A stretch of DNA of 64,000 nt from Candidatus Chisholmbacteria bacterium (GCA_963704905.1 CAVPHZ010000001.1:323438-387437); one strand, 5' to 3'. Counted from the stretch's first letter, positions 39,301 through 61,435 are shown. The notes: a model not told the origin generated them from the sequence alone. A program made the numbers and translations.

Positions 39301-39729
39301 GGGTATTTCACCGAGAGCTGCTTGAAGGCTTCTTTGTTCTGCGGCGAGATCGAATGAGCCGGCTACGGCGGAGGCAACCTGTGCCCGACGGTTTTTTGGG
39401 AGGATCTCGTCGAATTCGACATTGTTTTGCGCATATTCATTGGCCGCTTTTAATACCGCTTCGCTTATACTTTCTCTGGTTAGGTTTTCTTTGGGGAGAA
39501 ATAAAGGAGTTCGTTGGGCTATCACATAGGCCGCTTTATGCGCATGGGAATCTCTGAATTCTTGGAGGAATACGGTCGAGATGTATGGTGTGGCAGCTTT
39601 GGCGTAGCCCGTTCTAATTTTCTCACCTATTCTGGTGAGGTTCTGATGCTTTTTTTTTAGCAGAGCACCTTGGTCTGCAGAAGCGTTTTGAGATGGTGAT
39701 GATGTTGTTGAGCTAGTGCTGTCCGGCAT
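36385..39729 (-). CDS. giant multidomain membrane protein: basic amphipathic tandem repeats, Gly-rich polytopic region, C-terminal M23-family peptidase-like domain
   Basis: 1114 aa. Residues 400-490 carry degenerate 11-residue-period repeats (TAPVRKAVRKL / TAPIRRQVRQV / TSPVRKLVSKV / TTPIKQVYGKA / TDPIKRLVKKL). A central region has many Gly/Ala-rich TM helices (VirB6/TrbL-like). C-terminus has ...HTSNTGTGPENNHLHYEVRGG, resembling the M23 (LytM) HxH zinc motif. Confidence 0.45.
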   Translation of the reverse strand: MPDSTSSTTSSPSQNASADQGALLKKKHQNLTRIGEKIRTGYAKAATPYISTVFLQEFRDSHAHKAAYVIAQRTPLFLPKENLTRESISEAVLKAANEYAQNNVEFDEILPKNRRAQVASAVAGSFDLAAEQRSLQAALGEIPGYLKDLDLSLPSTKTVEKDIRDRLHQHDIDRETSRQIARDIRSKVDQEALRNGAEPSPEAQRAMVQTAIDRNTDDLSSQQQEQLTDGVMESGSLKSRAQSVGGLSGEINSVLDKYERFSEHVKNEIEKDVEVSVADESNDRQPTTIHLKQPIEINGEKHIKIVVHNRTKESDPNLPDNAAMPTFQYGTRIQRPKDVKLDSIESFTVYDPKTKKRVYINKDQIDTRALRKIDSKAAQKYGFLFDEKNIKSFREARDWINNPTKMAYRKATAPVRKAVRKLTAPIRRQVRQVRSKVSAAARRLTSPVRKLVSKVTTPIKQVYGKAKTAVKKVVSKVTDPIKRLVKKLMLKLGQLAAKALIKVGLGGLVKKIEQLALAGTGVGILIVIAQELIERGLGKMFQAIKGLAKDYKEAIKEGLRDPIKGSLRLMGTVADTGMTVAGAAVGATGGAAVGALVGGLIGSVVPVIGTAIGAVLGGIVGGVAGGGFGAKAGYEFRRKLIKKFKRWLVMRLFWKSLGRVIWTAIKSAALGWVGSVVAGVVNFATNIVAGAKNLILQPITTGKQLIYIARHYTFIEGPVANLINGTSNLIKNAFSNAVRAVNALAGETLKTSTKSLAKAEQVMLEATSNTTPRWLYLTSVGSIGYVIVMALFVYTVMLGVFHVPPTEVIPYLGYGLGSGYGTEQSQYIGVVKNANPDRIVSNSNLPATITYTVTITAQGSDLANIAFNNTYTIRQDPLLAGPPSTTIPSPPLTPILDGSTYSLTYAVDLGTQYADSFVCDNFTVTADTVAGRDSSTSVACVMIGNPPDDCPFGWPVLPPAGMSFLRITQGNRGICTHGALESALDIFGQTPSQQLVGAAVIATHQGTAAQGSSGNYGSYVDVTGVCNGQPFTTRYAHLRSDTRVPNGPVNYGTTVGHTSNTGTGPENNHLHYEVRGGVLPMEPPNIPEFVLPRGCCNYRGIACIDTSGNPSRIP

Positions 39730-40338: not shown

Positions 40339-43300
40339 ATGAGCGAAGAAAAAGAACGATCTGAAGAAAAAGGCAAAACAGAAAGAGGGAAGAAACCTTC
40401 TGGATCTCAAGAAAAGGAAAAGAAGGAAAGCTCTGTGCGCAGAAGAGGGAAACAGCAAAAAGAAACGAGCGCTCCACAGCCTCCATCAACGCAGCCAGAA
40501 CAAACAGTTTATGAGCGAGGCGACAAATTCCAGGGTGTAAATGAGAAAGACCGGAAGAATGCCGGTCAGCTTACCGAGAAGATGCTTCAGAGCGCAGTCG
40601 GCGAAGCTATGAAGGCAGGCGTTGAGGTTAACGGCAAGAAGATTCAGGCTGAAGATTTTGATCGGCTCAAAGCACTGCTTTTCAGAAAAAAAGAGGTGGA
40701 TGAAGAGGAAGAGAAATCACTGCTTGAATTGCTCCTGGCACTGCTTCAATTTCTTTATGAACAGATCAAACAAGCGATTTTTGGCGATAAAGACGACCAC
40801 AAGGCAATAGTTGAGACAGCGAAGGCGTTTGGAATCGGAGATGATTCCAAAGAAATCATGAAATGGGTTACCAGCATATTTACCTTTTCCGAGGAGGGTG
40901 AGGCAGAGCTACAGAAAAACGTTGACCGTTACCTTGCCGATGAGCAAGACGTTCCAGTTCCTGATGAACAGATGTTGGAAGCGTGGAGAAAGAGAGGGTG
41001 GACTGAAGGTGATATCCAGCGTGTCCTTAAAGAAGGAAAACGAGGAGGAACTTCAGGTCCAGCGGACGGTGAGGATATTGATGTAATGATTGATGCAATG
41101 AGTGATGATGAAGTAGCCCGTATTGCAGCCCGGGGAGATCGGACACTTGCCACTGCTGATATCTGGCAGCAGTATTTTGCCCAATCCAGACAAGGAGACC
41201 AAGCTGTAAGCTTAAATCCTTTGCAAGCGACGCTTGACGAACAAGTAAAACGACTCAAACAAGCCCAGGAGATTGGTGACCAAGCTCGGGAAAAACACCT
41301 ACAAAGAGAAGTTGCCAAGTCAATTCTTCTGCTGGAGCGGATGGCACCAGCCAGGAAAAGTAATAATGGAGAAGATGTTGAGCGACAAATGGGATTGTAT
41401 GGACCGCGGGCGGTTGATTTGATGAGGAGAATTACTGAACTTCGCAAAGTAGGTGTTTATGCTGCGCTGACTGCACGTGAGGCTGATATTCGTGCGATAC
41501 AGATTGAGGGAGATACGGGTGATTCATTAAAAGTTCAAACAGGACATGGAGAAGAAATATTTCAGTCTGGAGAGAGCGAGGTTGGTAAAAAATTGCTTCG
41601 AGATGTAGCTTTGGTGCAGGCCGGTAACCTGAGCGTAGATGAGTTTAGGGAGTCGTTACGAGTGAATTATATTAAACCTGTTTATGAGGAAGTTATTGGT
41701 GATGCCGAAGAGGATCCAAGGCAGGGATTCAAGATGGAGTCTTGGGGGCATATCCTAATGGGAGAGCTGTTTGAGTCGGTTAAAGAAGCTGGCTACTATG
41801 GTGATCGCGAGAAACAACGCCTGAGCAGCTCTTTGTATGCTCGGCAAATCAGCTCACTGCTTAATGCTGATGCAAATAAAGGTGCGAGCATCACCGATAT
41901 GCACAAGAAGGCTGACCAGCTGTTTTTATCTGAAGATTACGACACGATGATGCGTACAGAGCCGGGGTTGGGGGCAGCACGCAGGCGTCTTGAAGCAGTC
42001 TTCAGCCTAGTACAAATGGATCCCAACAACCGCTACCGAATGCCATATAAAGAATTTATTGCTGATCCAGAAGGAAACTTCGAGGCACCACACATACAAC
42101 GAATGGTATCGGAAACACTCTTGCAACAGCAAGGTGAAGGGATTTTGAGGAACTCGCTTGACCAGAAGGTTTCAATTAAACGGAAAGAGGCTGCGCGGAT
42201 TGCCGGACAGGCGATGAGCGTTTCCAACTCTATGCTGCGGACGACTGAACGGATGTCGACGAGCTTGCTTGCACCTCGAGAAGGTGGGGAGTTTTTAATC
42301 AGCACACCGCATGATAAAGCCAGATATGACACGCTGCGCATGTCCGGAGAACGGTTTGAGACGTATGGCCGTGGCCGGGAGGCAATCAAGCCATTGGTTG
42401 ACCGAATGCGACAAGCTGTTCAGCCAGGGGTGTATGAGCCATTACCCGGTAATGGCGGGTTTGGCGTTGACCGATGGGAGTTGAACCCGGAAAACTTGTT
42501 TAAAATCGGAGGGAATTATAGTGCCTCTCATTGGAGAGCACATAAGGCAACTGAACAACAGCGAGCACGTGGATTGGCTTTGGGATTGAAACTCTATGAG
42601 CCGGATGCAAACAAAGCTGATTTATGGAGACAGGTTGGGGAGCGACTGCCGACAGTGGTTGCGCGATATTTTCCCACATTAGCGCTTGAGAATGCGAAGG
42701 ATAAAATTCACTATTTTGATTTTGAAGCACGGCTCCGCAGCGATGTCATTTCAGGAGGGGAAAAGGAAAGTTTTTTGAGGTATGTACAAACCAGAAGAGA
42801 CGCGCTCTTGAAAGACAAAAAAGAAGATCATCTCGGTGAAATTTCTAGTGAAATAACAAAAGATATTGAATCCCGAATTCTGCGGGGTGTATCCAAGGAC
42901 ACAGCAAAGAATAAAGAGGATCTCAAAAAAGCAGTGGCTGGTTTTAGAGCCAGTGGAGAATATACGTTGGATGGCAAGCTTGGGCGGGTTTTTCAAGAAA
43001 AAGTGGAGCAACGCCAAAGAGAACTGTACCTTCAAGAAGGCGCGCGGATTAGTTTTCTATGGATGGTAGCTAAAGAAACAGGCACAGAGATGAATTTGAA
43101 TACACCTGAATGGGAGGGGAAAGCCTGGGAGCGATGGGTTGAGATTGAGAACAAATTGGCGATTTTGCAGGAAAAGAAACTACAAGAATTTTTATTTGAG
43201 CGGAAAGAAGAGTACCAGGATGCAGATGGAATAGCGCAAAGTGCCTACGATGCAGGGCATGATGCTAGTTGGAGGATTTTAGACGATCCTACTTTAACTG

Positions 43301-44190
43301 AGGGAGTGAAAAACGTTGTCCGTCGGCTGACTTTCCTTGGAAATAATGACATTTCTGAGCGTGATTACACCACTTTTCACCAACAAGTATTAGGTTTATC
43401 CGATGAAGAGATTAATACAGAATTGGATTTGCACGATGATTATCAGGTTTCAAGTAGCAACAGGGAGGCAAAACGAAACGCTGTTCTTTGGAAAAGACTT
43501 GATAAAGAGAAGAAAAGAGGAGCGGAGCGGCTGGCGAGCGTGGAGTTTAGCTTTACGCCGTTTTTAGATGATGTTGCGCACGAGAAAGAGGAGTGGAAGG
43601 AGATCGGACCGAGGGGTGTATCTCGAAGATATGCTGACAATGAGATGTACCAAAACGCCCAATCGGCGTTCTGGAAGATTTCTAATAACCTGATGGTTGG
43701 TGACGACCGGGCCCCGCAAGACCGAGCTGAATTGGTGAAAAATTTGACTGAGTTTCAAAACATCATGCAGTATCTTTCTGAGTCTGATCGGCAGAAGATA
43801 ACCGCTTCGCTTGCGTACAATGTGGTTAATAATCTTTATAAGGCAGATAAATGGACGAACATTCCCTTTTTTGGCCCAGTGATCGACTGGGGAGGACCTT
43901 GGGGATTGTGGAAGTTTGCTGGAGTGTCTTCTCCTGCACAGCGGAAGTTTGGATACGATGCAATGAGCATGACTGCTTTAGAACGCTACCAATTCATAAA
44001 TGATTTACGCCCACTGATAGGTAATGAGTGGGCAGATAAGCTGATGAAAGATACTAAATCACGGTTTCGAAATGTGGTTTACGAGTTAGTTAACCAATAT
44101 TCGCTTCCAGGTGCAATAGCATCAGCTTGGTACCTGGCGAAACCATTTTTTACGGAATTAGCGGCGTATATGAAGCAGGATTTTCAGTAG
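40339..44190 (+). CDS. very large, highly charged soluble protein of unknown function
   Basis: 1283 aa, Lys/Glu/Arg-rich, with a low-complexity N-terminus (EEKERSEEKGKTERGKK). No TM, no nucleotide-binding or relaxase HUH motif seen. Confidence 0.35.
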   Translation: MSEEKERSEEKGKTERGKKPSGSQEKEKKESSVRRRGKQQKETSAPQPPSTQPEQTVYERGDKFQGVNEKDRKNAGQLTEKMLQSAVGEAMKAGVEVNGKKIQAEDFDRLKALLFRKKEVDEEEEKSLLELLLALLQFLYEQIKQAIFGDKDDHKAIVETAKAFGIGDDSKEIMKWVTSIFTFSEEGEAELQKNVDRYLADEQDVPVPDEQMLEAWRKRGWTEGDIQRVLKEGKRGGTSGPADGEDIDVMIDAMSDDEVARIAARGDRTLATADIWQQYFAQSRQGDQAVSLNPLQATLDEQVKRLKQAQEIGDQAREKHLQREVAKSILLLERMAPARKSNNGEDVERQMGLYGPRAVDLMRRITELRKVGVYAALTAREADIRAIQIEGDTGDSLKVQTGHGEEIFQSGESEVGKKLLRDVALVQAGNLSVDEFRESLRVNYIKPVYEEVIGDAEEDPRQGFKMESWGHILMGELFESVKEAGYYGDREKQRLSSSLYARQISSLLNADANKGASITDMHKKADQLFLSEDYDTMMRTEPGLGAARRRLEAVFSLVQMDPNNRYRMPYKEFIADPEGNFEAPHIQRMVSETLLQQQGEGILRNSLDQKVSIKRKEAARIAGQAMSVSNSMLRTTERMSTSLLAPREGGEFLISTPHDKARYDTLRMSGERFETYGRGREAIKPLVDRMRQAVQPGVYEPLPGNGGFGVDRWELNPENLFKIGGNYSASHWRAHKATEQQRARGLALGLKLYEPDANKADLWRQVGERLPTVVARYFPTLALENAKDKIHYFDFEARLRSDVISGGEKESFLRYVQTRRDALLKDKKEDHLGEISSEITKDIESRILRGVSKDTAKNKEDLKKAVAGFRASGEYTLDGKLGRVFQEKVEQRQRELYLQEGARISFLWMVAKETGTEMNLNTPEWEGKAWERWVEIENKLAILQEKKLQEFLFERKEEYQDADGIAQSAYDAGHDASWRILDDPTLTEGVKNVVRRLTFLGNNDISERDYTTFHQQVLGLSDEEINTELDLHDDYQVSSSNREAKRNAVLWKRLDKEKKRGAERLASVEFSFTPFLDDVAHEKEEWKEIGPRGVSRRYADNEMYQNAQSAFWKISNNLMVGDDRAPQDRAELVKNLTEFQNIMQYLSESDRQKITASLAYNVVNNLYKADKWTNIPFFGPVIDWGGPWGLWKFAGVSSPAQRKFGYDAMSMTALERYQFINDLRPLIGNEWADKLMKDTKSRFRNVVYELVNQYSLPGAIASAWYLAKPFFTELAAYMKQDFQ

Positions 44191-44201
44191 TACTTCTTTT
44201 C

Positions 44202-45695
44202 TTATTTTCTTCGAGTTTCACCGGCGAGTGATTCAATCTTCTGGGCAACGTAGGTTCTGGCTCCGGAGGAGATTCCACCCGCCACACCTCGTACCGGGGC
44301 TGTGGCTACCCTAGCTCCAGCGGCAATTGGAGCAAAGATGCCGGCGGCCGGTATTCCTTTGGCTTTCAGCGCTTGCTGGAGCGTGGTTACCAGCTGGGGG
44401 GTAAAGAGGATGAAACCATATCCTATTAAAGCGAGGACAGATTCGACGTCTGTGGTAAAGCCGATGAAAGGCGGAAGCCAACCTTCACCACTATCTCTAA
44501 TGACTGAACTGGTTATTCCCCACTCATCTCTTCCTAAAGAACAACGGTCTGGATCACTTGAAGTACATGGACCCATGAGAATAGCTCCAATGAGGAGGAG
44601 GGCTGCAGCGGCAGGAAAGACAAGAACATTGGCGAGGAAATTTCGAGCCCAACTGCTGAAGCTGTCTGATCCAGGCAGAGCATTGGGAAGGATCATCAAC
44701 GGAGAGAAGATGGTCAGCATGATGATTTTTACATAGGACATGAGCAACTGGAAAAAGAGACGGAAGGCGGCAAACAGAAGTGCAACCGACATGATGACGG
44801 TGACAAATGCGTCTCCGACGATTCCGACGATAAAGCCAATGGTGTCGTTGTCAAACACGTTCTCAATGATATTTCTGATTTGATCTCCTGCGGTGTCCCC
44901 GGAAACCGTGTCAAAGCCTTTAAAGAGAATGGTAAAGATGTTTTCACCGATGAATACCTGGCGCGGTGCGGAGGCACTCGTTAGGAGCCCTTGAGTGTAT
45001 AGTGTTGAGATGACGAGATAGATGCCGAGGTAGATGAGGTCGACGAAAAAGCCTGCTATCGCAAAGGAAAAAGTGATGAGCAGCAAAGTGACCACAAGTT
45101 TTGGGAGCGAGTTTTGAAGGTTGACCACGGTTTGAGGGTCAAGCTGAGCGCGAAACATGATCATAAATCCAATGAAGATAAAGATGATCACGTAGGCAAG
45201 ATAGGCGATGTTTCTAAACGCAGCCCAGAGATCTGTCAAAGGAAGGAGGGCACGATAGCCGGTGCTCTGCGCATAGGCAGGTTCAACCGGGTTTATTTTG
45301 CGAGCGACGTATTGAATATATTGTCCTGAAGAAACAGGCCGTTCGGCGATAAGTCCGGCGATGAAGCCTCCGGCGAATTGTACTGCACCTGGCCGTCTAT
45401 AGCTGAATGGAGTCGGGTCTGCTGTGGGATGCTCAGTGGTTCTGAATGTCGAGGTACTGGTGGTGTTTAAGATTGCATTTACGATAGCAGTAACTGTGCA
45501 CTCAAGACCCACGTTTCCGTCAGCACATTCTTGCAGCGCCAAGTCGTGTTCGGCTGAGCTGGGCTGAAACCATAGGCTTTGGGCAAATATTGGTATGGAA
45601 AAGAGGGTGAATAACACGATGAGAACAGCAACGATTTTCCAGAGTGGTTTGTTGAGAACATTTCTGAGCCAGCGCAGGTGTTTCATCAGCGTCAT
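44202..45695 (-). CDS. polytopic membrane protein (VirB6/TrbL-like candidate)
   Basis: 497 aa with an N-terminal signal/TM and at least six further hydrophobic helices, in a T4SS-like context. Confidence 0.35.
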   Translation of the reverse strand: MTLMKHLRWLRNVLNKPLWKIVAVLIVLFTLFSIPIFAQSLWFQPSSAEHDLALQECADGNVGLECTVTAIVNAILNTTSTSTFRTTEHPTADPTPFSYRRPGAVQFAGGFIAGLIAERPVSSGQYIQYVARKINPVEPAYAQSTGYRALLPLTDLWAAFRNIAYLAYVIIFIFIGFMIMFRAQLDPQTVVNLQNSLPKLVVTLLLITFSFAIAGFFVDLIYLGIYLVISTLYTQGLLTSASAPRQVFIGENIFTILFKGFDTVSGDTAGDQIRNIIENVFDNDTIGFIVGIVGDAFVTVIMSVALLFAAFRLFFQLLMSYVKIIMLTIFSPLMILPNALPGSDSFSSWARNFLANVLVFPAAAALLLIGAILMGPCTSSDPDRCSLGRDEWGITSSVIRDSGEGWLPPFIGFTTDVESVLALIGYGFILFTPQLVTTLQQALKAKGIPAAGIFAPIAAGARVATAPVRGVAGGISSGARTYVAQKIESLAGETRRK

Positions 45696-45746
45696 TGTAG
45701 ATCACAGCATTCGTATGAGTCAAATGTTGAGACTCTGTTTATTGTA

Positions 45747-46877
45747 CTACAGACCCTTTCTGACCCAAATCTGTTGGTTGCAGCGCTCATCATAATATAT
45801 ATACGGTTGAGATCCCGGGATGCGGGAAGAAATAGACTCCAATAGATTTTCTTTAGCACAGTGAATATAGCCAAGATAGCGGAAGTAGGTACGCGCATCA
45901 CTACCGGGATTGATATCAAGCGGAGAGCCGGCTTCTGCGTAGTCGTCGGTGAAGCGGTAACTCAGGCGTGACTCACCAGGCCAGTCAAAGGTTGGTTCGC
46001 TGAGGGCAGTGCGGAACATGGTGAAGATCGACTGAGTGTTATTTACGGTGTTGTTCCAAATCTCGTATAAGTACGGGGTGTATGTGTGAATGTACCCCGG
46101 GGTCATGGCAACTTTGATTTCTTCGTATAAGTCCTCACAAGCTCCTTGTTCGAAATCAAATGGGCTGGGGAACCAATTTCCATTGTATGGATCATTCGGT
46201 TGACCGCCTGATTGGCTAGAGTCCCAAACACATTCCATCCAAGGAGCGAAGGGGTCGCTGCGGCAAGATCCTGTTGAGCTCGATCCTCCCGGAACCCATG
46301 ACCCACCTATGCATTGGTGCCATCCATATCTGTATGGCTGGTTGCAAAATCTGGTGACTGTTGGTTCGGTTAAGTACCAATCATCGTCACAATATTGTCC
46401 TCCCTGACAACCAAAACCGCCAGTACAACAGTCTGAAAGACTGCAAGGTGAGGCAAAGTCAGGACATTGCTGAATCCGATTAACTTGCGTTCCAGGAGGA
46501 TGACCTGCTGGGACACCAACAACTGGAGCAGTGCAATACCAAGCAGGGCCAGTCAGATCGTTGGTTGGCATGCTTGCCGAATTACATTCGGCTCCCGGGC
46601 AAATATACTCGAAGTAATCTGCATAGTAGGGTTGGGGAATGTATTTGAGTTCGGCAGCCTGGAAATTGATTTCGCTGTTGAAGACATAATCACCAGGAGA
46701 ATAGTATTGATCTCCGAGATCGCACATCGGGCCAATTGAACAGGCGTTGTAGTAACAATCGAAACCTTGGGCAAAGATCGGTTTTTCCATTTTTGACAGC
46801 AGGAATAGTCCAATGATTGAGAAGAGAATGAGTGTAAGTGTGGCGTGAATTAATAGTTGCAGTCTTATACTGTTCAT
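45747..46877 (-). CDS. secreted Cys/aromatic-rich protein, hypothetical
   Basis: 376 aa. N-terminal signal/TM (LTLILFSIIGLFLLS), then over 30 Cys with many W/Y/G/P (CYYNACSIGPMCDLGDQYY...). Confidence 0.4.
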   Translation of the reverse strand: MNSIRLQLLIHATLTLILFSIIGLFLLSKMEKPIFAQGFDCYYNACSIGPMCDLGDQYYSPGDYVFNSEINFQAAELKYIPQPYYADYFEYICPGAECNSASMPTNDLTGPAWYCTAPVVGVPAGHPPGTQVNRIQQCPDFASPCSLSDCCTGGFGCQGGQYCDDDWYLTEPTVTRFCNQPYRYGWHQCIGGSWVPGGSSSTGSCRSDPFAPWMECVWDSSQSGGQPNDPYNGNWFPSPFDFEQGACEDLYEEIKVAMTPGYIHTYTPYLYEIWNNTVNNTQSIFTMFRTALSEPTFDWPGESRLSYRFTDDYAEAGSPLDINPGSDARTYFRYLGYIHCAKENLLESISSRIPGSQPYIYYDERCNQQIWVRKGL

Positions 46878-46880
46878 TTG

Positions 46881-48719
46881 TTAGCCTTCTGGTCTGTCAA
46901 TTAAAGCACAGGTAGAAACCCACCTCCATCGAGATTGAATGTTGCAAGCATATTGTCTTCCAGTTGACGAGTCGCAGCTTCCACTGCGATAGATAGCCAG
47001 GAATACTTCCAGGTCGTTCATCGGTCGGGCTGGTCCAGTTCCGCAGCTGGCAGTGGATAAGTTTGGATAGAGTGTCGTGAGCGGAGGATTACTGAAACAG
47101 CTTGAATAATTGGAGCGGTATACAGATGGCAATTGGATGTGACCGCTCAACCCGGTTCCACCGCCATTATTTTGACGCTCGAAACTACACTCCAGAGCTG
47201 GGTTGTTTACTCCGAAATCTTGCCGTGAGATGCTGTAGTTGCTGGCGTTGCTTTCATTTAGCCAGATGAGCATGGACAGGGCTGGGTGAATATTGCCGCT
47301 AGCATGGGCAATGACATCTCCATAGCATGCGGCAACATTGTTTCCTGGTCGGCCACTTACCCATGCTAGGGCAAGATTTTCAATATCTGATTGTGATCGA
47401 ACACAAGAATGTGTATTGGAGACGTTGTGGCAATCAACCACTGTTGTAGGATCGCATCCGGCTGAACCGCCACCGGCTAGACAGGCTGCTCCTGACATAG
47501 CCCAAGGACCAGCAGGACACATTTCACCCATATCTGCTTCGGTTTCTTCTTCAGGAGGTACAGGCACGGGGAGCAGGTTTGATGCAAGCATGTCTTGCAA
47601 GTAAGTGCTGACCTGGTTTAGGCGGGGAAGGTGAGGAATGCTTACCCTTTCTTCAATAGTTGAGAAGGGCTGTCCCGGCTCTGGATTGACTTGAATGAAG
47701 CCAATGGCATCTTCCCGGGTGACTGTGGGAATATTTGACCAGAGTTTGCCGTAAATTGTATCAGCCCACTGAGTGCGGTCTGCAATGTAGGTGGCAATAC
47801 AACTATTTCTGGCAACTGAACTGGCGATAGCACTACAGGTGTATTCTGGTGGAAGGTGGCTGGAAAAGTCTGATAGCCGAACTGGATTTCCTTGGTTCCA
47901 GTTTGCTGGTTCTCCATTATCTTCAAAACCAACGATATAGTCGTGATGTTCATCTCCAGCGTTATCTATCATGCTGATCTTTCTACCTCTTTGCGTTGAC
48001 AGATCTTCGTTAAATGGCAAGGCTGAAAGTAGCTTCCGATAAACACCGGCACGATTCCAAAGTTCGGGACGCTGATCAATATACACCAGACTATTGATGT
48101 CCGGTTCAAGCACTCCTTCGTAGAAGGCCCGGCCTTCAAGGTAATCGGCTAGATGTTCCTGAGCCCGGTTAAAGAAGGTGAGGTAGTCGTATCCAGCACG
48201 ATTGACGGATACCAGCGGAAGCTCGTAGGCGCGAGCATCCACGGTGTAGGTGCCTGCAATGCAAGGAAGATTATTTGGATTTGCGTCTATGCCGCAGGGG
48301 TTGTCTTGCGGCTGGACAGCGGCAACACAAGGAAAGTTCGGATCATTAAGCTCACATCCTTGTGTATGGCGAAGATAACCAACATTTTTGGCTGCCCAGG
48401 GACGCATGGCACAGTAGGGTTCGTTGGTGTCTTCTATTTCTCGGTCTGCTTCGGGACCACAAATCTCGCAGGGATACGGACGAAGCGGATGGCCTTCGCT
48501 ATCCCACGGGTCGCAGCGCTCAGCTTCTAACCCTGCAGTTCTCGGGCAGGAATCGACATCCGCTTGGGCAAGAGTTTGAGAGGGGGATGTGACTGTTGAT
48601 ATTACAACTACAATCAGTACTACTATCAACTGAAGTGATGTTTTTCTTTTATCTTGTTGTTGGTCAAAACGTTGCGTCATATTGACTAGGAAGAAGCCAA
48701 GATACCTCATAATTATCAT
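46881..48719 (-). CDS. secreted Cys-rich protein, hypothetical
   Basis: 612 aa. N-terminal TM/signal, about 30 Cys, 4-bp spacing from the downstream paralog-like gene. Confidence 0.4.
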   Translation of the reverse strand: MIIMRYLGFFLVNMTQRFDQQQDKRKTSLQLIVVLIVVVISTVTSPSQTLAQADVDSCPRTAGLEAERCDPWDSEGHPLRPYPCEICGPEADREIEDTNEPYCAMRPWAAKNVGYLRHTQGCELNDPNFPCVAAVQPQDNPCGIDANPNNLPCIAGTYTVDARAYELPLVSVNRAGYDYLTFFNRAQEHLADYLEGRAFYEGVLEPDINSLVYIDQRPELWNRAGVYRKLLSALPFNEDLSTQRGRKISMIDNAGDEHHDYIVGFEDNGEPANWNQGNPVRLSDFSSHLPPEYTCSAIASSVARNSCIATYIADRTQWADTIYGKLWSNIPTVTREDAIGFIQVNPEPGQPFSTIEERVSIPHLPRLNQVSTYLQDMLASNLLPVPVPPEEETEADMGEMCPAGPWAMSGAACLAGGGSAGCDPTTVVDCHNVSNTHSCVRSQSDIENLALAWVSGRPGNNVAACYGDVIAHASGNIHPALSMLIWLNESNASNYSISRQDFGVNNPALECSFERQNNGGGTGLSGHIQLPSVYRSNYSSCFSNPPLTTLYPNLSTASCGTGPARPMNDLEVFLAIYRSGSCDSSTGRQYACNIQSRWRWVSTCALIDRPEG

Positions 48720-48819
48720 AGAAAGTTCACTTCCTTATTGCAAGAATAGAGAATTATGATTTTGAGAGAAAGCTTTTTTGGAAGCTGAGGGTTGGGAGAT
48801 TGGGGATATTAAATAAAGA

Positions 48820-49290
48820 CTACAACCCTGTTGTGTCTGGGCAAGGTATATTGAACTCCAGTAGCGTGAAGGTGACACCGAAGATGAAATCGTCAATAAA
48901 TTTGAGAATAAACCAGGCAAGTATCATTAGTGCAATTCCTGCGATTGCATAGGTCATGGTATTTTTGGCGTCTTGTACCGCTTTTTGATCACCACCACTG
49001 GTAAGATAGCGGAAGCCTCCAAATATTAACATTACAAAGAGAAGTATTCCGGCAATTGAGACCGCGGCTGACAGGATATTGGCAAAAATATAGTTAAAAT
49101 CACATAGGGGATTTACTGCCGAAGGTTGAACTATTCCAGCGTAGATAGTCCTAGGTTTTAGTATGCCCAATACAGCCGTGAAGAGCGCAACTACCCACGT
49201 TCGCTTCAAGTTCATTATCAGATGATTAAAAACAATCGGAACGTTCTTGGTGAGGCTCCGATTGTTTTTTCTTTTTTCCATTATGATCAT
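48820..49290 (-). CDS. T4SS pilin-like two-helix membrane protein (paralog 1 of 7)
   Basis: Signal/TM1, loop LFVMLIFGGFRYLTSGGDQKAVQDAKNTMTYAIAGIAL, then TM2. Shares the W/Y-[LI]-[TS]-[AS]-G-[GN]-[DP]...K...A..G[LI] motif with the neighbouring ORFs. Confidence 0.5.
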   Translation of the reverse strand: MIIMEKRKNNRSLTKNVPIVFNHLIMNLKRTWVVALFTAVLGILKPRTIYAGIVQPSAVNPLCDFNYIFANILSAAVSIAGILLFVMLIFGGFRYLTSGGDQKAVQDAKNTMTYAIAGIALMILAWFILKFIDDFIFGVTFTLLEFNIPCPDTTGL

Positions 49291-49335
49291 TGCTCTGATT
49301 CACAACTTAAATTCTATCTTGTGTGTACTATCTGA

Positions 49336-49683
49336 TTAATAGAATGTTGGGAGTGAAAGGGTGCTCGTGAAATTGACTCCAAAGAAGAAGTTGATCAGTT
49401 GCATGATGGCCCAGGCTGCTGCGATGACAGCAAGTCCGACCAATGCGTTTGAAATTCTTCCGCGAGCTGCTTCAATGTTGGCCTTATCACCTCCGGCAGT
49501 AATCCATTGGATTCCACCCCAAACCAGATATGCAAAGACAAGAACTCCTGCAATGAGGAAGGCTGCTCCAATGGCCCCAGAAATGAGCGTTCCAATATCA
49601 GTAATCTGGAATCCTGATGGTCTGCCAACGTTGACGCTAGCGTATGCTTGTGGTGCGAGTTGCATATCTTCACCTCCTCTCAA
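49336..49683 (-). CDS. T4SS pilin-like protein (paralog 2)
   Basis: LVWGGIQWITAGGDKANIEAARGRISNALVGLAVIAAAWAIM. Confidence 0.5.
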   Translation of the reverse strand: MRGGEDMQLAPQAYASVNVGRPSGFQITDIGTLISGAIGAAFLIAGVLVFAYLVWGGIQWITAGGDKANIEAARGRISNALVGLAVIAAAWAIMQLINFFFGVNFTSTLSLPTFY

Positions 49684-49817
49684 TGCAGTGATGATTATGG
49701 TTTTATGTACTTTCCTTGTTTATTTTGATCAATATTCGACGAACTGTCAACTTCAGTATTTGAAAATTTCTAGTCTTTGCTGAAAACTTGCTCCATTTTT
49801 TAACCTTTATATTCTAT

Positions 49818-50132
49818 CTATATTGGGTTGATTGGAAGCCCAAGAACATAGATGGCGATAAGATAGACTGCCCATGCAGCTGCAACTAAGACTAGCCCAG
49901 TTGCTGCGTTGGTCATCCGTTGTTTGGCTGCTTCTACGTGGGTTTTGTCACCTCCAGCTGTTAACCATTGGAGTGCTGACATGACGAAGAAGAGGATGAA
50001 CGCGAGACCACCGAAGATGAGTGCGAGTGCCAATACATTACTTACCACATCACCAATCGATGTGATTTTAAAGAATGTTCCAATGTCTAGTTGAGAACTG
50101 ACGTTTACAGGTATTGGTGTAAAAAGTGTCAT
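49818..50132 (-). CDS. T4SS pilin-like protein (paralog 3)
   Basis: ALQWLTAGGDKTHVEAAKQRMTNAATGLVLVAAAWAVY. Confidence 0.5.
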   Translation of the reverse strand: MTLFTPIPVNVSSQLDIGTFFKITSIGDVVSNVLALALIFGGLAFILFFVMSALQWLTAGGDKTHVEAAKQRMTNAATGLVLVAAAWAVYLIAIYVLGLPINPI

Positions 50133-50146
50133 AGGTATCTATTGAA

Positions 50147-50533
50147 TTACGGTCCAGGAAAGTCAAACGACAAATCTTCTAGGAATTGGATATTTAAGAC
50201 AGAACCGAGAAACTGAATAATAGCCACAGAGGCCACGAGTATGACGAGACCGATAGCCCCGTTGGCAATTTTGTCTCTACCTTCTTCAAATTTGGATTTG
50301 TCACCCTGAGCAGTTACCCAACGAACCGCTCCCCATGCGAAGTATAAAACAAAGAAGATACTTCCAACAATGACGAGGGTTTTCCAGATGTTAGCGATCA
50401 TCATTGCTAACGCTTCACCGGGTGCTCCGGTGCTGTATGTGGGAGCAACGGGGTTAGAGATTCTTGCATAGCTAGGAGTTGAGCTAAGCAGTGTTAGGAG
50501 GGAGCTGGTAATTATTTTCAGCTTTTTTTTCAT
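50147..50533 (-). CDS. T4SS pilin-like protein (paralog 4)
   Basis: AVRWVTAQGDKSKFEEGRDKIANGAIGLVILVASVAII. N-terminal signal peptide. Confidence 0.5.
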   Translation of the reverse strand: MKKKLKIITSSLLTLLSSTPSYARISNPVAPTYSTGAPGEALAMMIANIWKTLVIVGSIFFVLYFAWGAVRWVTAQGDKSKFEEGRDKIANGAIGLVILVASVAIIQFLGSVLNIQFLEDLSFDFPGP

Positions 50534-50544
50534 GACATCAGGTA

Positions 50545-50904
50545 TTAAGGTGTTAGTTCACCAATTCTGGCTGCTAAATCTAGAATATCAAATCCGAGCA
50601 GTAAACCAAGTATTCCGGTAATTGCCCAAGTCATGACAATGATCACCAAACCAATAGCTGCATTCGATAAATACCTCTGGGCTTTTTTTACTTTTTCTTG
50701 GTCACCTTGGGCGGTGAGATAATTCAGCGCTCCAAGCAGAAAATAGATGATGAATGCCAAACCTCCTATTACCGTGAATGTTCCCAAGAGAACGCTGAAG
50801 AAATTTTCAAGAGTGCCCCCAACATCAGTTGCAGTTACTTGGAAGGGGCTGTCTCCTGTGATTGGCTGGAAGTCTAGTGCATAGATTGGCTTGATGTTAG
50901 TCAT
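50545..50904 (-). CDS. T4SS pilin-like protein (paralog 5)
   Basis: ALNYLTAQGDQEKVKKAQRYLSNAAIGLVIIVMTWAI. Confidence 0.5.
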   Translation of the reverse strand: MTNIKPIYALDFQPITGDSPFQVTATDVGGTLENFFSVLLGTFTVIGGLAFIIYFLLGALNYLTAQGDQEKVKKAQRYLSNAAIGLVIIVMTWAITGILGLLLGFDILDLAARIGELTP

Positions 50905-50905
50905 A

Positions 50906-51346
50906 TTATGGACCAGGCCCAGTTATAGACGGTTGTAAAATGGCGGTCGCGTCTCCAAAAAGTAAAAGTCCCATCAGCGCTGCAAAGGCAAAAGCCAAAA
51001 CGACTACTATCAACCCGATGATCGATTGATAGATTTTTTGCCAGGCACTGGAGATTTTTTCCGGATTACCGGCAGAGCTGATAAATGAAACCCCACCGAG
51101 TACAAAGTTGATAAAGGCGTACAGTCCAGCAGCTATAGTAATCAGGCGAATAACATTTGAGAGAAACACTGTGGCGTAAGGGAGATCTCCATAGGCTGTG
51201 ATGGGATTGGTAATTGTTCCAATCAATCCAGCATGCGCAATTTTTACCTGAAATATAGCGTTATACACTAGAGCGAGAAGAACAATTGAAATAGTTCTCA
51301 AACTACTTACTTTTGGCAAAAGATGATGATTATTGTTCATGACCAT
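50906..51346 (-). CDS. T4SS pilin-like protein (paralog 6, divergent)
   Basis: GVSFISSAGNPEKISSAWQKIYQSIIGLIVVVLAFAFA (GNPE variant of the loop). Confidence 0.45.
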   Translation of the reverse strand: MVMNNNHHLLPKVSSLRTISIVLLALVYNAIFQVKIAHAGLIGTITNPITAYGDLPYATVFLSNVIRLITIAAGLYAFINFVLGGVSFISSAGNPEKISSAWQKIYQSIIGLIVVVLAFAFAALMGLLLFGDATAILQPSITGPGP

Positions 51347-51364
51347 GTTTGCTGTTTCTTAATT

Positions 51365-51802
51365 TTAGAGTCCGGAGGTCAGGATAGCAATACCGGTTAG
51401 CACTTCGATAATTCGGATGATCCAAAATGCTCCAAAGACAAGTCCAAGCCCCATGACACCTGCGGTCGCTGCATTTTTGCCTTTCTCGTTTTGCTGCGGG
51501 TTTCCTGCTGAAGAGATCATGGCAATCCCAGCTCCGATGATGAGTAGAAATGAAATTAACCCAGCGCCTACCATGGCCGTAGTGAGTAAGGGAGAGATAT
51601 AGTCTCCAAGTGTTCTGGTCCCACCGAATGCAAGTGGATAGGCAGTTGCAATATCAACAGGAGGAGGTTGCGCATAAACGGCTGAGGTAATTCGGAAGAA
51701 TATGCCTGTTGAGAGGATTGTGATGATTGCTATTTGGCGATTGAGGGTGGGCTTCATGCTTGAGAATAGCATACCATTATTGTGATTATCATAGCCGGTC
51801 AT
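51365..51802 (-). CDS. T4SS pilin-like protein (paralog 7, divergent)
   Basis: GIAMISSAGNPQQNEKGKNAATAGVMGLGLVFGAFWII. Confidence 0.45.
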   Translation of the reverse strand: MTGYDNHNNGMLFSSMKPTLNRQIAIITILSTGIFFRITSAVYAQPPPVDIATAYPLAFGGTRTLGDYISPLLTTAMVGAGLISFLLIIGAGIAMISSAGNPQQNEKGKNAATAGVMGLGLVFGAFWIIRIIEVLTGIAILTSGL

Positions 51803-51833
51803 TGATGTTGGTACAATACATTATAATCATCCT

Positions 51834-52397
51834 ATGAAGTCGAAGTCTTCTGATATTGATGAGCGGTTACTTGTCGAAGGTTTGCTTAAGGGTTCAGAGC
51901 GTTGGTTAGGTTTGTATTACCGAACCTATTCATCTCCAGTTCGACGGTTTATCACTAGTCGAGTGAGGTTGCCTGATGATGCTGAGGAAATTCTCCAAGA
52001 TACTCTCTTATCTTCATTGGACTCTCTGGCACTCTTTTCGCGGAGATCGAGTTTGTTTACCTGGCTGTGCAGCATTGCGAGACATGAGATTGCGGATTAT
52101 TACCGGCGACGTACGATTAAGACGATTGTTTTTTCCAAGGTACCGTTTGTTGAGCGATTCGTGAGTCGGGCGCTTGAACCAGACGCCGGTTTTATGCGTC
52201 GTGAATATGAGCAGCGAGTTAAACAGGCGTTGTCTATGATTTTGCCTCATTATCGTACAGCGCTGGAGCTTAAATATATGGATGGGTTATCGGTGGCTGA
52301 AATCAGTGAACAACTGGGGATGAGTTTAAAAGCTTGTGAGTCGGTGCTTACCCGAGCGCGAAAGGCATTTGAGCTGGCGTATGAGCAGACAGCGTAG
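51834..52397 (+). CDS. ECF-type RNA polymerase sigma-70 family factor
   Basis: Region 2 (RFITSRVRLPDDAEEILQDTLL..L) and region 4 HTH (LSVAEISEQLGMSLKACESVLTRARKAF). 187 aa. Confidence 0.75.
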   Translation: MKSKSSDIDERLLVEGLLKGSERWLGLYYRTYSSPVRRFITSRVRLPDDAEEILQDTLLSSLDSLALFSRRSSLFTWLCSIARHEIADYYRRRTIKTIVFSKVPFVERFVSRALEPDAGFMRREYEQRVKQALSMILPHYRTALELKYMDGLSVAEISEQLGMSLKACESVLTRARKAFELAYEQTA

Positions 52398-52635
52398 TGA
52401 GAAAGAGTTTTATAGAGAACTTCAACGCAGGATTGGTGAAAACAAACAATTATATAGTGAGTCTTCCTTTCATCTTCCAGATTCGAGTTGTATGCGGTTT
52501 GTGGCTACCTACTTAGGTGTTAATCCATGGAAAGTGATCATTCCGGTGGCGGGTATTATAGTTTTGCTATTTCGAGTTGTGCTGGGAACGTCTTTTGCTG
52601 AGTTTATCTTAGATATTTTAGGAGGTGGATTATAG
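52381..52635 (+). CDS. putative single-pass anti-sigma factor
   Basis: Start (ATG at 52381) overlaps the sigma-factor stop by 17 nt. Short cytoplasmic part, one TM (VIIPVAGIIVLLFRVVLG). Classic ECF sigma/anti-sigma coupling; function inferred from context only. Confidence 0.35.
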   Translation: MSRQRSEKEFYRELQRRIGENKQLYSESSFHLPDSSCMRFVATYLGVNPWKVIIPVAGIIVLLFRVVLGTSFAEFILDILGGGL

Positions 52636-53119: not shown

Positions 53120-54400
53120 ATGACTACTGATGAATGGGTGAAAAAAAGTGTGCGGCAGGGAAAGTTGCTGGTTGAAGTTCCAGACCATTGGAGTGAGAAG
53201 AAGCGGGTGTTGGCTCGTCGGAAGGTGCTTGAGCAACTCACCGGTGTTCGCTTGTCTTCACTATCTTTGAATGAGGAGTTACTGAATGCAGCCTCCTCGA
53301 GAAATATTGAACAGGCAATTGGTGCGACTTCTGTTCCAGTTGGAATTGTTGGCCCGCTGCGCGTTCGCTCGGGGCAAGCACTTCAAATTTTCTCAAAACA
53401 AGACCTACGCATGCGTTCCCGCCATCAGGGTGGGCAAGCAAAAGAGGAGAAGGAATATTTTATACCAGTAGCGACAACTGAAGGAGCGCTGGTTGCGAGC
53501 ATCAATCGAGGGTGTAAGTCAATTACGCAGGCTGGTGGAGCTGCTGTGGTATCTGAAAAAATTGGGATTACACGGGCTCCTGTTTTTCGAGTACAAAGCC
53601 TCTCAGAGGGGAAGACATTTATTGCATATATCCGACAGCATTTGTCTGAACTGCGTACCATTGCACATGATACTGATCGACATCTGAAGCTTGTTCACAT
53701 AGAACCAAAGATGGTTGGACGGAGTGTTTTTTTACGATTTCGGTTTAATACCGAAGAAGCGATGGGAATGAATATGGCAACGATTGCTACTGATGCTCTT
53801 TCGCAGCATTTAGAAAAGGTTTGTAATGTTTCCTGTGTCAGTCTGTCGTCCAACTACTGTATTGATAAAAAGCCAGCATCGTTGAACTTTCAGTCTGGGC
53901 GAGGTTATCAAGTTTGGGCGGAAATTGTTTTACCGCCGTCTTCTGTAGCCAATTTACTTAAGACAACAGTTGAAAAAATTGCTGAAGTATCTTATCGAAA
54001 ACTGTTTGTCGGATCGGCACTTTCGAATTCACTGGGATTTAACGCACAATATGCCAATATTGTTGCGGCTTTGTTTCTGGCAACCGGGCAAGACATTGCT
54101 CATGTGGTGGAGGGATCGATGGGGATTACAACAGTTGAGCAGGTGAAGAAAGGACTCTATGTGAGTGTTTTCTTACCCTCGCTGGTTCTGGGAACGGTGG
54201 GTGGTGGAACTGGATTACCGGCTCAGAACGAAGCGCTACAGATCATGGGACTTGGTGGTGCTAAAACCGGAGATAGTGAAACATTGGCTGAGATTGTGGG
54301 TGCGACTGTGTTGGCTGGGGAGATTTCTCTTTTAGCATCTTTAGCGGAAGGGTCGCTGGCTCGGTCACACCAAAGACTGGGGAGGAACCATACAGCATGA
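53120..54400 (+). CDS. hmgA: HMG-CoA reductase, class I (archaeal/eukaryotic-type)
   Basis: EEAMGMNMATIATDA and LGTVGGGTGLPAQ match the class I DAMGMN / GTVGG motifs. 426 aa. Confidence 0.85.
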   Translation: MTTDEWVKKSVRQGKLLVEVPDHWSEKKRVLARRKVLEQLTGVRLSSLSLNEELLNAASSRNIEQAIGATSVPVGIVGPLRVRSGQALQIFSKQDLRMRSRHQGGQAKEEKEYFIPVATTEGALVASINRGCKSITQAGGAAVVSEKIGITRAPVFRVQSLSEGKTFIAYIRQHLSELRTIAHDTDRHLKLVHIEPKMVGRSVFLRFRFNTEEAMGMNMATIATDALSQHLEKVCNVSCVSLSSNYCIDKKPASLNFQSGRGYQVWAEIVLPPSSVANLLKTTVEKIAEVSYRKLFVGSALSNSLGFNAQYANIVAALFLATGQDIAHVVEGSMGITTVEQVKKGLYVSVFLPSLVLGTVGGGTGLPAQNEALQIMGLGGAKTGDSETLAEIVGATVLAGEISLLASLAEGSLARSHQRLGRNHTA

Positions 54401-55437
54401 TTCATCATAAAAAACTCACTGGAATTGGGATCGTTGGATATGGATCGTACGTTCCACGACTACGAATACGTATTTCGGAAATCGCCTCCTCGTATGGAGT
54501 CGACGGGAAACAAGTAGAACAGAATTTATGCGTCAAGCAAAAATCAGTGGCTCAGTGGGATGAAGATGTGGTGACGTTGGCGTACATGGCGAGTTCTGGT
54601 GCTCTTAGCATGGCAAATATTGATGCTACAAAAATTGGAGCACTCTATATTGGTAGTGAAAGCCATCCCTATGCGGTGAAGACTACGAGTACCATTGTTG
54701 GAGAAGCGCTCGGAGTTGGACATGAATACATGGCTGCTGACTTAGAATTTGCGTGTAAAGCAGGTACTTCGGGAGTGCAACTGATTGCTTCACATCTGCT
54801 CAGTGGTGTTATCTCATATGGTTTGGCTGTTGGGGCTGATGTGGCGCAGGCAGAGCCAGGAGATTTACTTGAATACACTGCCGCTGCCGGAGGAGCAGCT
54901 CTGCTTTTGGGAAAACGGAGAATACTAGCCCGATTAACTGGATTTTTTTCCTATTGCAGTGATACCAGCGATTTTTGGAGAAGGAGTGAGCAGAAGCTTC
55001 CACAGCATGCAGGACGTTTTACTGGGGAACCAGCATATTTCCGACACATTATTGCTGCAACTGAAGCTTTTTTTAAGGCTTCGAAAACCAATGCTTCTAC
55101 CTATGATCATGTGGTGTTTCATATGCCAAATGGAAAGTTTCCTGTACGAGCGGCTCAACGACTTGGTTTTGGCGAGAAACAATTAAAGCACGGCTTCATT
55201 GTTAGTGAGATCGGCAATCCGTATAGTGCTTCAACGCTTCTTGGTTTGTGCCGGGTGCTTGATAATGCAGATAACCAACAGCGCATACTTCTAGTTTCGT
55301 ACGGCTCAGGTGCAGGATCAGATGTGCTTTCTTTTTTTACAACACCGCTACTGGCAAGATACCGAAGAAGACTGTCGCAAGCAGCGCATCAACCAACCTA
55401 TCTTTCATATGGAGCATATCGGGCAATGGTGGGGTAA
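54397..55437 (+). CDS. hydroxymethylglutaryl-CoA synthase (archaeal-type, thiolase-fold)
   Basis: 346 aa, condensing-enzyme fold with active-site Cys context (LEFACKAGTSG). Translationally coupled to hmgA (ATGA overlap). Adjacent to the thiolase and DUF35 genes, as in archaeal HMGCS/thiolase/DUF35 complexes. Confidence 0.7.
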   Translation: MIHHKKLTGIGIVGYGSYVPRLRIRISEIASSYGVDGKQVEQNLCVKQKSVAQWDEDVVTLAYMASSGALSMANIDATKIGALYIGSESHPYAVKTTSTIVGEALGVGHEYMAADLEFACKAGTSGVQLIASHLLSGVISYGLAVGADVAQAEPGDLLEYTAAAGGAALLLGKRRILARLTGFFSYCSDTSDFWRRSEQKLPQHAGRFTGEPAYFRHIIAATEAFFKASKTNASTYDHVVFHMPNGKFPVRAAQRLGFGEKQLKHGFIVSEIGNPYSASTLLGLCRVLDNADNQQRILLVSYGSGAGSDVLSFFTTPLLARYRRRLSQAAHQPTYLSYGAYRAMVG

Positions 55438-55443
55438 TCAATT

Positions 55444-61072: not shown

Positions 61073-61435
61073 TTATGGTGTGAATTGAAATCCAATTAAT
61101 ACTTCGACGAGTCTCCAAATCCAGAACGCAGCGAATATCAATATAAAGCCAACGAGCGATGCGGTGAGTCGTTTCTTCCCTTTTTCTAATCCTTCTGGAT
61201 TTCCTGCAGACATGAGGAGCTGATAACCAGAGACAATAATCATGAAGATCAGTATTACCCCAGCGATTGCAAATGCGTAGGTAGTGAGTCCTATTCCACT
61301 GCCGCTTCCGGTCAGTATTGTGCCTAGATTTGTAAGATCTCCGGTTCCGCTTCCGTACTCTGTGCCTCCAGGAGGTGAGGAACAGTACCAGCCACCTCCC
61401 CAGGGATAACAATAGGCTTGTGCAAGCAATTCCAT
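61073..61435 (-). CDS. T4SS pilin-like protein (second cluster, member A)
   Basis: Loop QLLMSAGNPEGLEKGKKRLTASLVGFILIFAAFWIW between two TM helices, related to the 48.8-51.8 kb paralogs. Confidence 0.45.
   Translation of the reverse strand: MELLAQAYCYPWGGGWYCSSPPGGTEYGSGTGDLTNLGTILTGSGSGIGLTTYAFAIAGVILIFMIIVSGYQLLMSAGNPEGLEKGKKRLTASLVGFILIFAAFWIWRLVEVLIGFQFTP

Follow-up and report, generated by a model that had tools for sequence, protein, structure and literature searches.

A split, predicted secreted protein pair of a Microgenomatia-type secretion locus and its hydrolase-bearing fused relatives

We describe here two adjacent genes, B (46881..48719, minus strand, 612 amino acids (aa)) and A (45747..46877, minus strand, 376 aa), within a type IV secretion system (T4SS) locus on a 64,000-nucleotide (nt) stretch of DNA from a Candidatus Chisholmbacteria bacterium (GCA_963704905.1, CAVPHZ010000001.1:323438-387437; this whole stretch is the window, and all positions are counted from its first letter). 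In evolutionary terms, B and A are the two halves of one protein that forms a single chain in sister lineages; there, the same scaffold sits in the same operon slot and carries cell-wall hydrolase cassettes. On balance, we lean, if only slightly, towards reading the pair as a split, secreted scaffold-plus-lysin accessory of the T4SS or its pilus, that is, as a functional analogue of VirB1 and PrgK.

Gene pair B and A and its fused relatives

B and A are real, conserved genes, and the two adjacent open reading frames (ORFs) of 376 and 612 aa called in the original prediction are borne out at the coordinates given above. The ATG of A lies 3 nt past the TAA of B and in-frame with it (the junction reads GGC TAA CAA ATG), with a GAAGG Shine-Dalgarno-like sequence 7 nt 5' of this ATG, and the ATG of B is preceded by a Shine-Dalgarno-like sequence of its own, AAGGAAG. 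In layout, B comprises a signal sequence, the domain B_N, a short Cys-rich linker (CPAGPW...) and the domain B_C, and A comprises a signal sequence, the domain A_N with its Cys-rich and variable middle, and the conserved domain A_C. We count 19 Cys residues in A (5.1%) and 23 in B (3.8%), fewer than the roughly 30 apiece that had been proposed, the median among window ORFs that reach 150 aa or more being 0.6%; chance comes nowhere near explaining this enrichment. Of these Cys, 17 of 19 in A and 16 of 23 in B are shared by 69% or more of the homologues in the family alignments, which fits structural disulfides and the disulfide-rich type that had been suggested for both proteins. The abundance of Tyr and Trp is likewise found (7.7% and 2.7% in A, respectively), and the CDxxDxYY and CxGGxxC patterns are both present in A, as CDLGDQYY (residues 52-59) and CTGGFGC (residues 151-157). 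The hevein pattern is a C-x4-CC-x5-C-x5/6-C spacing with aromatic ligands, and a hevein or chitin-binding type 1 (CBM18) module was considered at residues 145-163 of A. We rejected this candidate, as the hevein-like Cys spacing is confined to the window protein, C151 and C157 are found in only 5% of the family, and there is no Pfam Chitin_bind_1 match.

Each protein has a single N-terminal hydrophobic stretch together with a conserved A-x-A-Q motif, and both are thus predicted to be Sec-exported, in line with the N-terminal signal or anchor sequences of the original prediction. In B, the sole hydrophobic segment (KD19>1.6) spans residues 25-51, within a signal sequence of residues 1-53 (48561..48719, minus strand) with predicted cleavage between LAQA and D; in A, it spans residues 3-31, within a signal sequence, possibly a signal anchor, of residues 1-36 (46770..46877, minus strand) with predicted cleavage between …KPIFA and QG. 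The N-terminal region closes with A-x-A-Q in all B homologues, and the same motif precedes the first conserved Cys in the A homologues. Signal-peptide cleavage was assessed by eye and hydropathy only; once the predicted signal is cleaved, A and B are left with no membrane anchor.

Close homologues number 15 for B (37-55% identity, E down to 1e-174) and 18 for A (38-51% identity, E down to 1e-95), all of them annotated as "hypothetical" and, where the source is named, from Patescibacteria or Chisholmbacteria; the nearest relatives are Chisholmbacteria, at 51-55% identity, and the core domains show 56-65% mean pairwise identity. As had been noted by eye, no family is recognized: neither A nor B has a match in Pfam, NCBIfam, PHROGs or PDB sequence searches, the three family libraries are likewise empty for the core domains when run on isolated B_C domains and on relatives, and PDB sequence and profile searches with B, A and the alignments A1, A2, A4 and A6 returned noise only (zinc finger, Mediator, GH1 enzyme; E>0.05). 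A phage or plasmid origin was rejected, as tblastn against collections of phages and plasmids and against IMG/VR gave no match to A or B.

We built hidden Markov models (HMMs) for four domains (B_N, B 57-395; B_C, B 425-612; A_N, A 35-245; A_C, A 246-371). An exhaustive A-family profile search of 1.84 billion representative proteins gave 42 matches at E<=1e-3, about 35 of which are proteins of 600-1100 aa that match A_C only, and in most of these B_N is present as well, upstream of A_C in the one polypeptide. One protein of 711 aa (P0014) consists of B_N, A_N and A_C, and the conserved N-terminal part of A_N can be aligned with the inter-domain linker found in fused proteins, which reads GPVCDP…SSGD.A…NP.Y (hhalign prob 86%, E 5e-6). 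By the fused chains and this linker alignment, A is equivalent to one contiguous piece of an ancestral protein, its C-terminal half, and B_N to its N-terminal half. The domain order in the fused relatives is B_N - A - B_C, so that the split form is a rearrangement (permuted) and not a simple break. The adjacent B-then-A order is kept in independent related loci (L001/L002, L003, L006 and L007), with differing spacers. The possibility raised at the outset, that the two ORFs are fragments of one frameshifted gene of known family, does not hold in the literal sense, as each has its own signal, A has a GAAGG ribosome-binding site, and the split is kept in L001-L003, L006 and L007, yet the two are halves of one protein in sister lineages.

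Conservation along the two proteins is uneven. B_N (47544..48521, minus strand, residues 67-392) is a conserved core module (HMM match E 2e-152) with the motifs HPLRPYP, YCAMRPWA, ELPLVS, ADYLEGRxYYE, GVxRKL, HxYIVG, KLWPYVPMFTRED and IPHLPRL, and among 32 near and distant members R80, P81, P83, C103, P168, G196, G225, L230, Q243, P291, P331, E336 and D337 are invariant. A_N (46143..46769, minus strand, residues 37-245) has a conserved part at residues 37-100 (CFYNACSxGPICDLGxQYYSPGDYV…IPQPYY; mean pairwise identity 0.59), followed at residues 101-245 by a Cys-rich, indel-rich and variable part (mean pairwise identity 0.41, 25% indel columns). A_C (45765..46139, minus strand, residues 247-371; mean pairwise identity 0.65) carries the motifs TPGYxxTYTPYLxxIWxNTV, FRT, WPGES, AEAG, YFRYLGYIHCAKENLL and YYDxRC. 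Structure prediction with AlphaFold2 (AF2), one of the checks originally suggested, succeeded in part: B_C (residues 430-612) is modeled confidently, with a predicted local distance difference test (pLDDT) of ~85-95, B_N is modeled only in part, with moderate confidence at residues 245-340 alone, and the model of A is unusable because its pLDDT is 46, its Foldseek list being noise.

B_N/A_C/B_C is a previously undescribed family that adds no fewer than three new domain families (B_N, A_C and B_C), which lie outside Pfam, NCBIfam and PHROGs. We scanned 185,579 species genomes and recovered 13 loci, of which those with a name are Chisholmbacteria or Beckwithbacteria. Several other family loci come from metagenome-assembled genomes labeled "uncultured Pseudomonadales" that have the same CPR-type locus (CPR: candidate phyla radiation), and these labels are probably wrong; the sequences concerned (L008, L009, L013, L016 and L018, titled "uncultured Pseudomonadales bacterium") have an extracytoplasmic function (ECF) sigma factor, a pilin array and a B_N/A_C protein. 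The family appears to be restricted to Microgenomatia-type lineages of the CPR or Patescibacteria, which are ultrasmall bacteria. Two of its members have N-terminal extensions (P0036 residues 1-330 and P0016 residues 1-110) in which the motifs ITEFG / WITESG and NEP recall the glycoside hydrolase (GH) clan GH-A; this resemblance is unverified, and Pfam lends it no GH support, there being no match at E<0.01 in P0036 and no GH-family match at E<1 in P0016.

Enzyme cassettes and the putative catalytic domain B_C

The fused relatives share a layout of signal peptide, optional NAGPA domain, B_N, A_N-like Cys linker, A_C and C-terminal cassette, and it is the cassette that varies. After A_C, we find Peptidase_M23 in five proteins (P0047, P0050, P0059, P0064 and P0073), Amidase_2 in three (P0041, P0042 and P0062), CHAP in two (P0044 and P0066), "lysozyme-like" SLT_3 in two (P0068 and P0074), and B_C itself in six (P0036, P0037, P0043, P0055, P0069 and P0072), and four fused proteins bear an N-terminal NAGPA phosphodiester glycosidase domain. 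All recognizable modules on the scaffold in relatives (M23, Amidase_2, CHAP, SLT_3 and NAGPA) are thus cell-wall hydrolases, and B_C occupies the same position as the hydrolase cassettes. Replacement is also seen among split-type B orthologues: P0011 and P0012, which align with B over an N-terminal stretch making up 55-65% of it and share 51-54% identity there, have B_C swapped for a module with sub-threshold SLT_2/SLT matches (E 0.0015-0.05) at the catalytic-Glu helix, and the UniRef name of this type of protein is "Transglycosylase SLT domain-containing protein". Furthermore, the B_N-family protein of L018 contains an SLT-like insert (IYWIEGT…LGLMQV) within B_N. An apparent pilin-B_N fusion in the same locus (560-2842) was discarded as an artifact, in which a 100-N run joins a Cys-rich pilin gene and the next B_N-family gene.

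B_C (46890..47444, minus strand, residues 426-610) is a putative catalytic, lysozyme-like domain with the motif IWLNESNASNY...QDFG(I/V)N, which in the family takes the form IWLNE(S/T)(N/G)ASNY…DFG(I/V). Among 15-19 diverse sequences, W486, E489, F502, G503, Q516 and C541 are invariant. The candidate catalytic residue is Glu489 (codon 47253-47255, minus strand), which is invariant in 19/19 B_C sequences and forms the C-terminal end of a predicted helix at residues 479-490 (AF2, pLDDT ~90); D501 is found at 95%. An invariant Glu closing a helix, with or without a later acidic residue, is what is expected of the lysozyme-like superfamily, and its presence in B_C is compatible with membership without being specific to it. 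The best PDB match of B_C by Foldseek is the GH73 domain of a C. difficile endolysin (8yxk_A), although the match is weak (E 0.58, prob 0.51, TMt 0.49), and a Foldseek comparison of the B model to viral structures gave noise. In addition, hhalign aligns B_C with the SLT-like module of P0011/12 at E 0.02, over 37 columns covering the Glu-helix region.

The secretion locus and its surroundings

The window locus is a monoderm-type T4SS, and the original observation that B and A are co-oriented with pilin and T4SS-like genes can be made more precise. Directly upstream of B lie seven VirB2-like T4SS pilin genes (48820-51802, minus strand), all of which match PF18895 and which are probably in the same operon as B and A, preceded by a divergent ECF sigma factor gene (51834-52397, plus strand). 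Directly downstream of A is a gene for a VirB6/TrbL-like polytopic membrane protein (44202-45695, minus strand) with a weak TrbL_4 match and seven transmembrane-like segments. Assigned by Pfam, and all on the minus strand, are a 1114-aa membrane protein with a C-terminal Peptidase_M23 domain (36385-39729), a PrgI/VirB3-like protein (34120-35235), a TrsD/TraC-N-like protein (33133-34107) and the VirB4 ATPase (31220-33118), with a 346-aa ORF (35332-36372, minus strand) among them. The N-terminal part of VirB4 appears as a separate gene, the TrsD/TraC-N-like one, upstream of that for the ATPase, and the PrgI/VirB3-like protein has an additional C-terminal CarboxypepD_reg-like domain. Since dnaA (28422-29795, plus strand) and dnaN (30034-31185, plus strand) lie directly beside the VirB4 end, the secretion locus is situated at the replication origin; a T4SS by dnaA is also reported for some Patescibacteria in parts of a recent survey (PMC12102498). 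A promoter and terminator scan of 44000-52600 gave counts equal to the shuffled expectation, and is thus silent on operon boundaries.

The slot of the family is fixed in 15 related loci (L001-L015), with an ECF sigma factor, then 7-10 pilins, and then B/A or the fused gene. For P0036 and P0037, as for the fused genes of L008-L015, the position is directly after the pilin array, and VirB6-like homologues follow both the fused gene (L004, L005, L011, L013 and L014) and the split forms; the window VirB6-like protein is 32-37% identical to homologues beside fused genes (E 2e-37 and 8e-34). Beckwithbacteria-type loci within L008-L012 show no detectable VirB6-like gene after the fused gene, and have instead a ~350 aa single-transmembrane protein and a ~720-745 aa soluble protein. 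Between the VirB6-like and M23 genes of the window, on the opposite strand, lies a gene for a conserved 1283-aa protein (40339-44190, plus strand), which is highly charged, with no transmembrane segment and no Pfam match, and for which L001-L003, L006 and L007 have homologues (E 7e-48 to 4e-180) that are placed and oriented in the same way.

According to the parts of Wang et al. 2023 (PMC10633639) and Quinonero-Coronel et al. 2025 (PMC12102498) that concern them, the T4SSs of Patescibacteria are of the same locus type as that of the window, sharing VirB4 with a separate TrsD-like gene, PrgI/VirB3, VirB6, a divergent VirB2-like pilin array, proximity to dnaA, and the lack of a relaxase or coupling protein nearby. 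In the same portion of the latter survey, patescibacterial T4SS loci are described as MPF_FATA-like and near dnaA, pilin arrays being abundant among Microgenomatia and homologues of VirB1 a rare find (PMC12102498). The locus type is already known from three papers (PMC10633639, PMC12102498, PMC12857230); the B_N/A_C family is not among the T4SS components in section 13 of PMC12102498 or in the T4SS passages of PMC10633639, and the portion of PMC12857230 covered here makes no mention of it either.

Just past the gene for the ECF sigma factor, mevalonate-pathway genes stand in a row (53120-56622, plus strand; HMG-CoA reductase, HMG-CoA synthase-like, thiolase). A second PF18895 pilin cluster is found on the minus strand (61073-61435, 61445-62239, 62422-62808 and 62777-63079), in which the 264-aa pilin at 61445-62239 has a Cys-rich N-terminal extension of ~170 aa before the pilin domain; a similar extension precedes the B_N gene of L018. 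Adjoining this cluster is a 109-aa ORF (63171-63500, minus strand), small, secreted and rich in Cys. Kinship of B and A with these two Cys-rich ORFs, at 61445-62239 and 63171-63500, had been considered, but the HMMs give no match at E<1. The highest Cys content in the window, 5.2%, is that of a 154-aa ORF at 18056-18520 (minus strand), which has no Pfam match.

Proposed role, alternatives and significance

Taking these observations together, B and A would be Sec-exported, disulfide-stabilized subunits of a lineage-specific Microgenomatia T4SS or pilus component, in which the conserved B_N + A core would dock an enzyme at the apparatus or the wall. After the split of the ancestral gene, B would keep B_N and the cassette B_C, and A would hold the remaining core; the pattern of fusion and fission predicts that B and A associate, most likely outside the membrane, beside the VirB2-like pilus and the VirB6 channel. 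The cassette would then cut peptidoglycan locally and so let the apparatus through, the wall in question being either the CPR cell's own or that of a host.

This reading places B and A beside the VirB1-type hydrolases of monoderm T4SSs (PrgK of pCF10, TraG of pIP501 and TcpG), which are likewise encoded in the T4SS locus and modular. PrgK of pCF10 combines LytM/M23, SLT and CHAP domains, and the modules of the B/A relatives (M23, SLT-like, CHAP and amidase) represent the same enzyme set. As would be expected of a protein of this type, the pair is encoded within the T4SS cluster, where it lies between the seven PF18895 pilin genes and the VirB6-like gene; however, a recognizable muralytic domain is present only in relatives, there being none in A or B by Pfam, NCBIfam, PHROGs or PDB. 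B and A also differ from PrgK, TraG and VirB1 in having no N-terminal membrane anchor after the signal sequence, and in the B_N + A scaffold (~500 aa), which has no counterpart there. The window form is, moreover, split over two genes, its sole candidate catalytic module, B_C, lies outside described families, and the pair stands beside an array of VirB2-like pilins, something absent from other monoderm T4SSs. Phage virion-associated hydrolases and modular endolysins offer a second comparison, as they too join a conserved structural or binding part to interchangeable muralytic domains, and the best structural match of B_C is to an endolysin GH73 domain; in contrast to these, B and A belong to a chromosomal T4SS operon rather than a lysis or tail module, and have no phage or plasmid homologue.

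We note, however, that several points weigh against a scaffold-plus-lysin accessory. B_C has no significant hydrolase match in Pfam, NCBIfam, PHROGs or PDB profile searches, hhalign of B_C against SLT_3 regions and hen lysozyme gives no signal, and in the AF2 model the beta-hairpin of B_C does not directly follow the Glu helix, unlike in classical lysozymes. When the weak GH73 resemblance and the Glu-helix alignment are set beside the null SLT_3 and lysozyme searches, a lysozyme-like catalytic role of B_C is plausible, if unproven. Furthermore, no fold could be assigned to B_N or to A, the model of A being poor (pLDDT 46), the positional equivalence of the cassettes is circumstantial, about half of the fused proteins have unrecognized C-termini, and the putative heteromer of B and A is a prediction drawn solely from the fusions. 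Finally, the membrane-anchored M23 protein of the same locus (36385-39729) could itself be the VirB1/PrgK equivalent.

The original prediction had put B and A forward as candidate host- or cell-surface-binding adhesins, which in the present context would mean a pilus-tip complex with a VirB5-like role: the pair would sit on the VirB2-like pilus as a cap or decoration and bind a ligand on the host surface, with the variable Cys-rich middle of A as the recognition surface and B_C as a glycan-binding, noncatalytic lysozyme-like module. Like the VirB5/TrbJ minor pilins, B and A have Sec-type export signals and occupy the slot between virB2-like and virB6-like genes, which is the position that virB5 holds in the Agrobacterium virB operon. 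Both proteins are, moreover, Cys-rich and predicted to be exported, variability and indels are at their highest in residues 101-245 of A (41% identity, indels in 25% of columns), and the role appears to be vacant, as the adhesin-related part of the Patescibacteria T4SS survey reports no adhesins such as PrgB (PMC12102498). However, A and B are much larger than VirB5/TrbJ, predicted to be mixed alpha/beta, Cys-rich, and hydrolase-fused in relatives, with no VirB5/TrbJ Pfam match at E<0.1 and nothing VirB5-like in the Foldseek PDB lists. The export implied by the adhesin proposal is predicted, but nothing points to an adhesin in particular: Pfam shows no lectin, immunoglobulin or repeat domain in B, in A or in 36 long relatives, the core domains are strongly conserved and not hypervariable, the recognizable fused modules are all hydrolases and none of them binding domains, and the invariant acidic residues of B_C are typical of catalysis. 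In view of the swappable wall-cutting enzymes of the relatives, B and A more likely aid wall breach than simple adhesion, and we regard a tip adhesin as unlikely.

Alternatively, B and A could be secreted T4SS cargo resembling pertussis toxin, exported by Sec, assembled through disulfides outside the membrane and then expelled, by a T4SS that works independently of a coupling protein, as a wall-degrading effector that acts on a host and is no part of the machine. The Ptl system, which has no coupling protein, is a precedent, as it exports the Sec-delivered, disulfide-bonded pertussis toxin that is encoded beside it. The Sec-type signals and many conserved Cys would suit such a cargo, as would the multisubunit or fused layout with swappable enzymatic "warheads", which recalls polymorphic effectors, and a segment of the survey describes patescibacterial T4SS loci as mostly having no coupling protein or relaxase nearby (PMC12102498). 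A core that is conserved, fixed in position and present in one copy per locus is, however, more usual for a component of the machine than for an effector that diversifies, and the 51-nt gap between A and the VirB6-like gene holds no evident immunity-like gene, making the cargo scenario quite improbable. Still a little less probable is a purely structural, envelope-spanning T4SS part, for example one that replaces a missing VirB8-like or stalk component, with B_C nonenzymatic. Such a part would be in keeping with the fixed place of B and A among core genes, the absence of a recognized catalytic family in either protein, and the near undetectability of VirB8 homologues in Patescibacteria stated in part of the same survey (PMC12102498), but bitopic VirB8-like proteins are membrane-anchored, whereas B and A have no anchor after signal cleavage, and this account leaves unexplained the five wall-hydrolase families carried by the same scaffold in relatives.

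The scaffold-plus-lysin reading could also be taken further, in that B_N + A might form a pilus- or channel-docked "drill head" that presents interchangeable wall-cutters to the host envelope, with B_C as a new glycosidase family. We consider this extension rather doubtful; if it were true, a conduit would be opened for epibiont uptake or injection, and the split and fused forms would provide a handle on the subunit interface.

The T4SS is essential in the one genetically tractable Patescibacterium, as reported in the T4SS passages of Wang et al. (PMC10633639), while a 2024 perspective calls the role of the patescibacterial T4SS "completely unknown" (PMC11665869), and the published survey, in the portion on this component, finds that hydrolases of the VirB1 type are for the most part absent close to virB4 (PMC12102498). 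The B/A family has a narrow range (Microgenomatia) in uncultivated organisms, and its catalysis is inferred. Within these limits, the B/A family is a candidate for the missing wall-breaching function in one large CPR class, one that predicts a heteromer from natural fusion and fission and names candidate catalytic residues to mutate.

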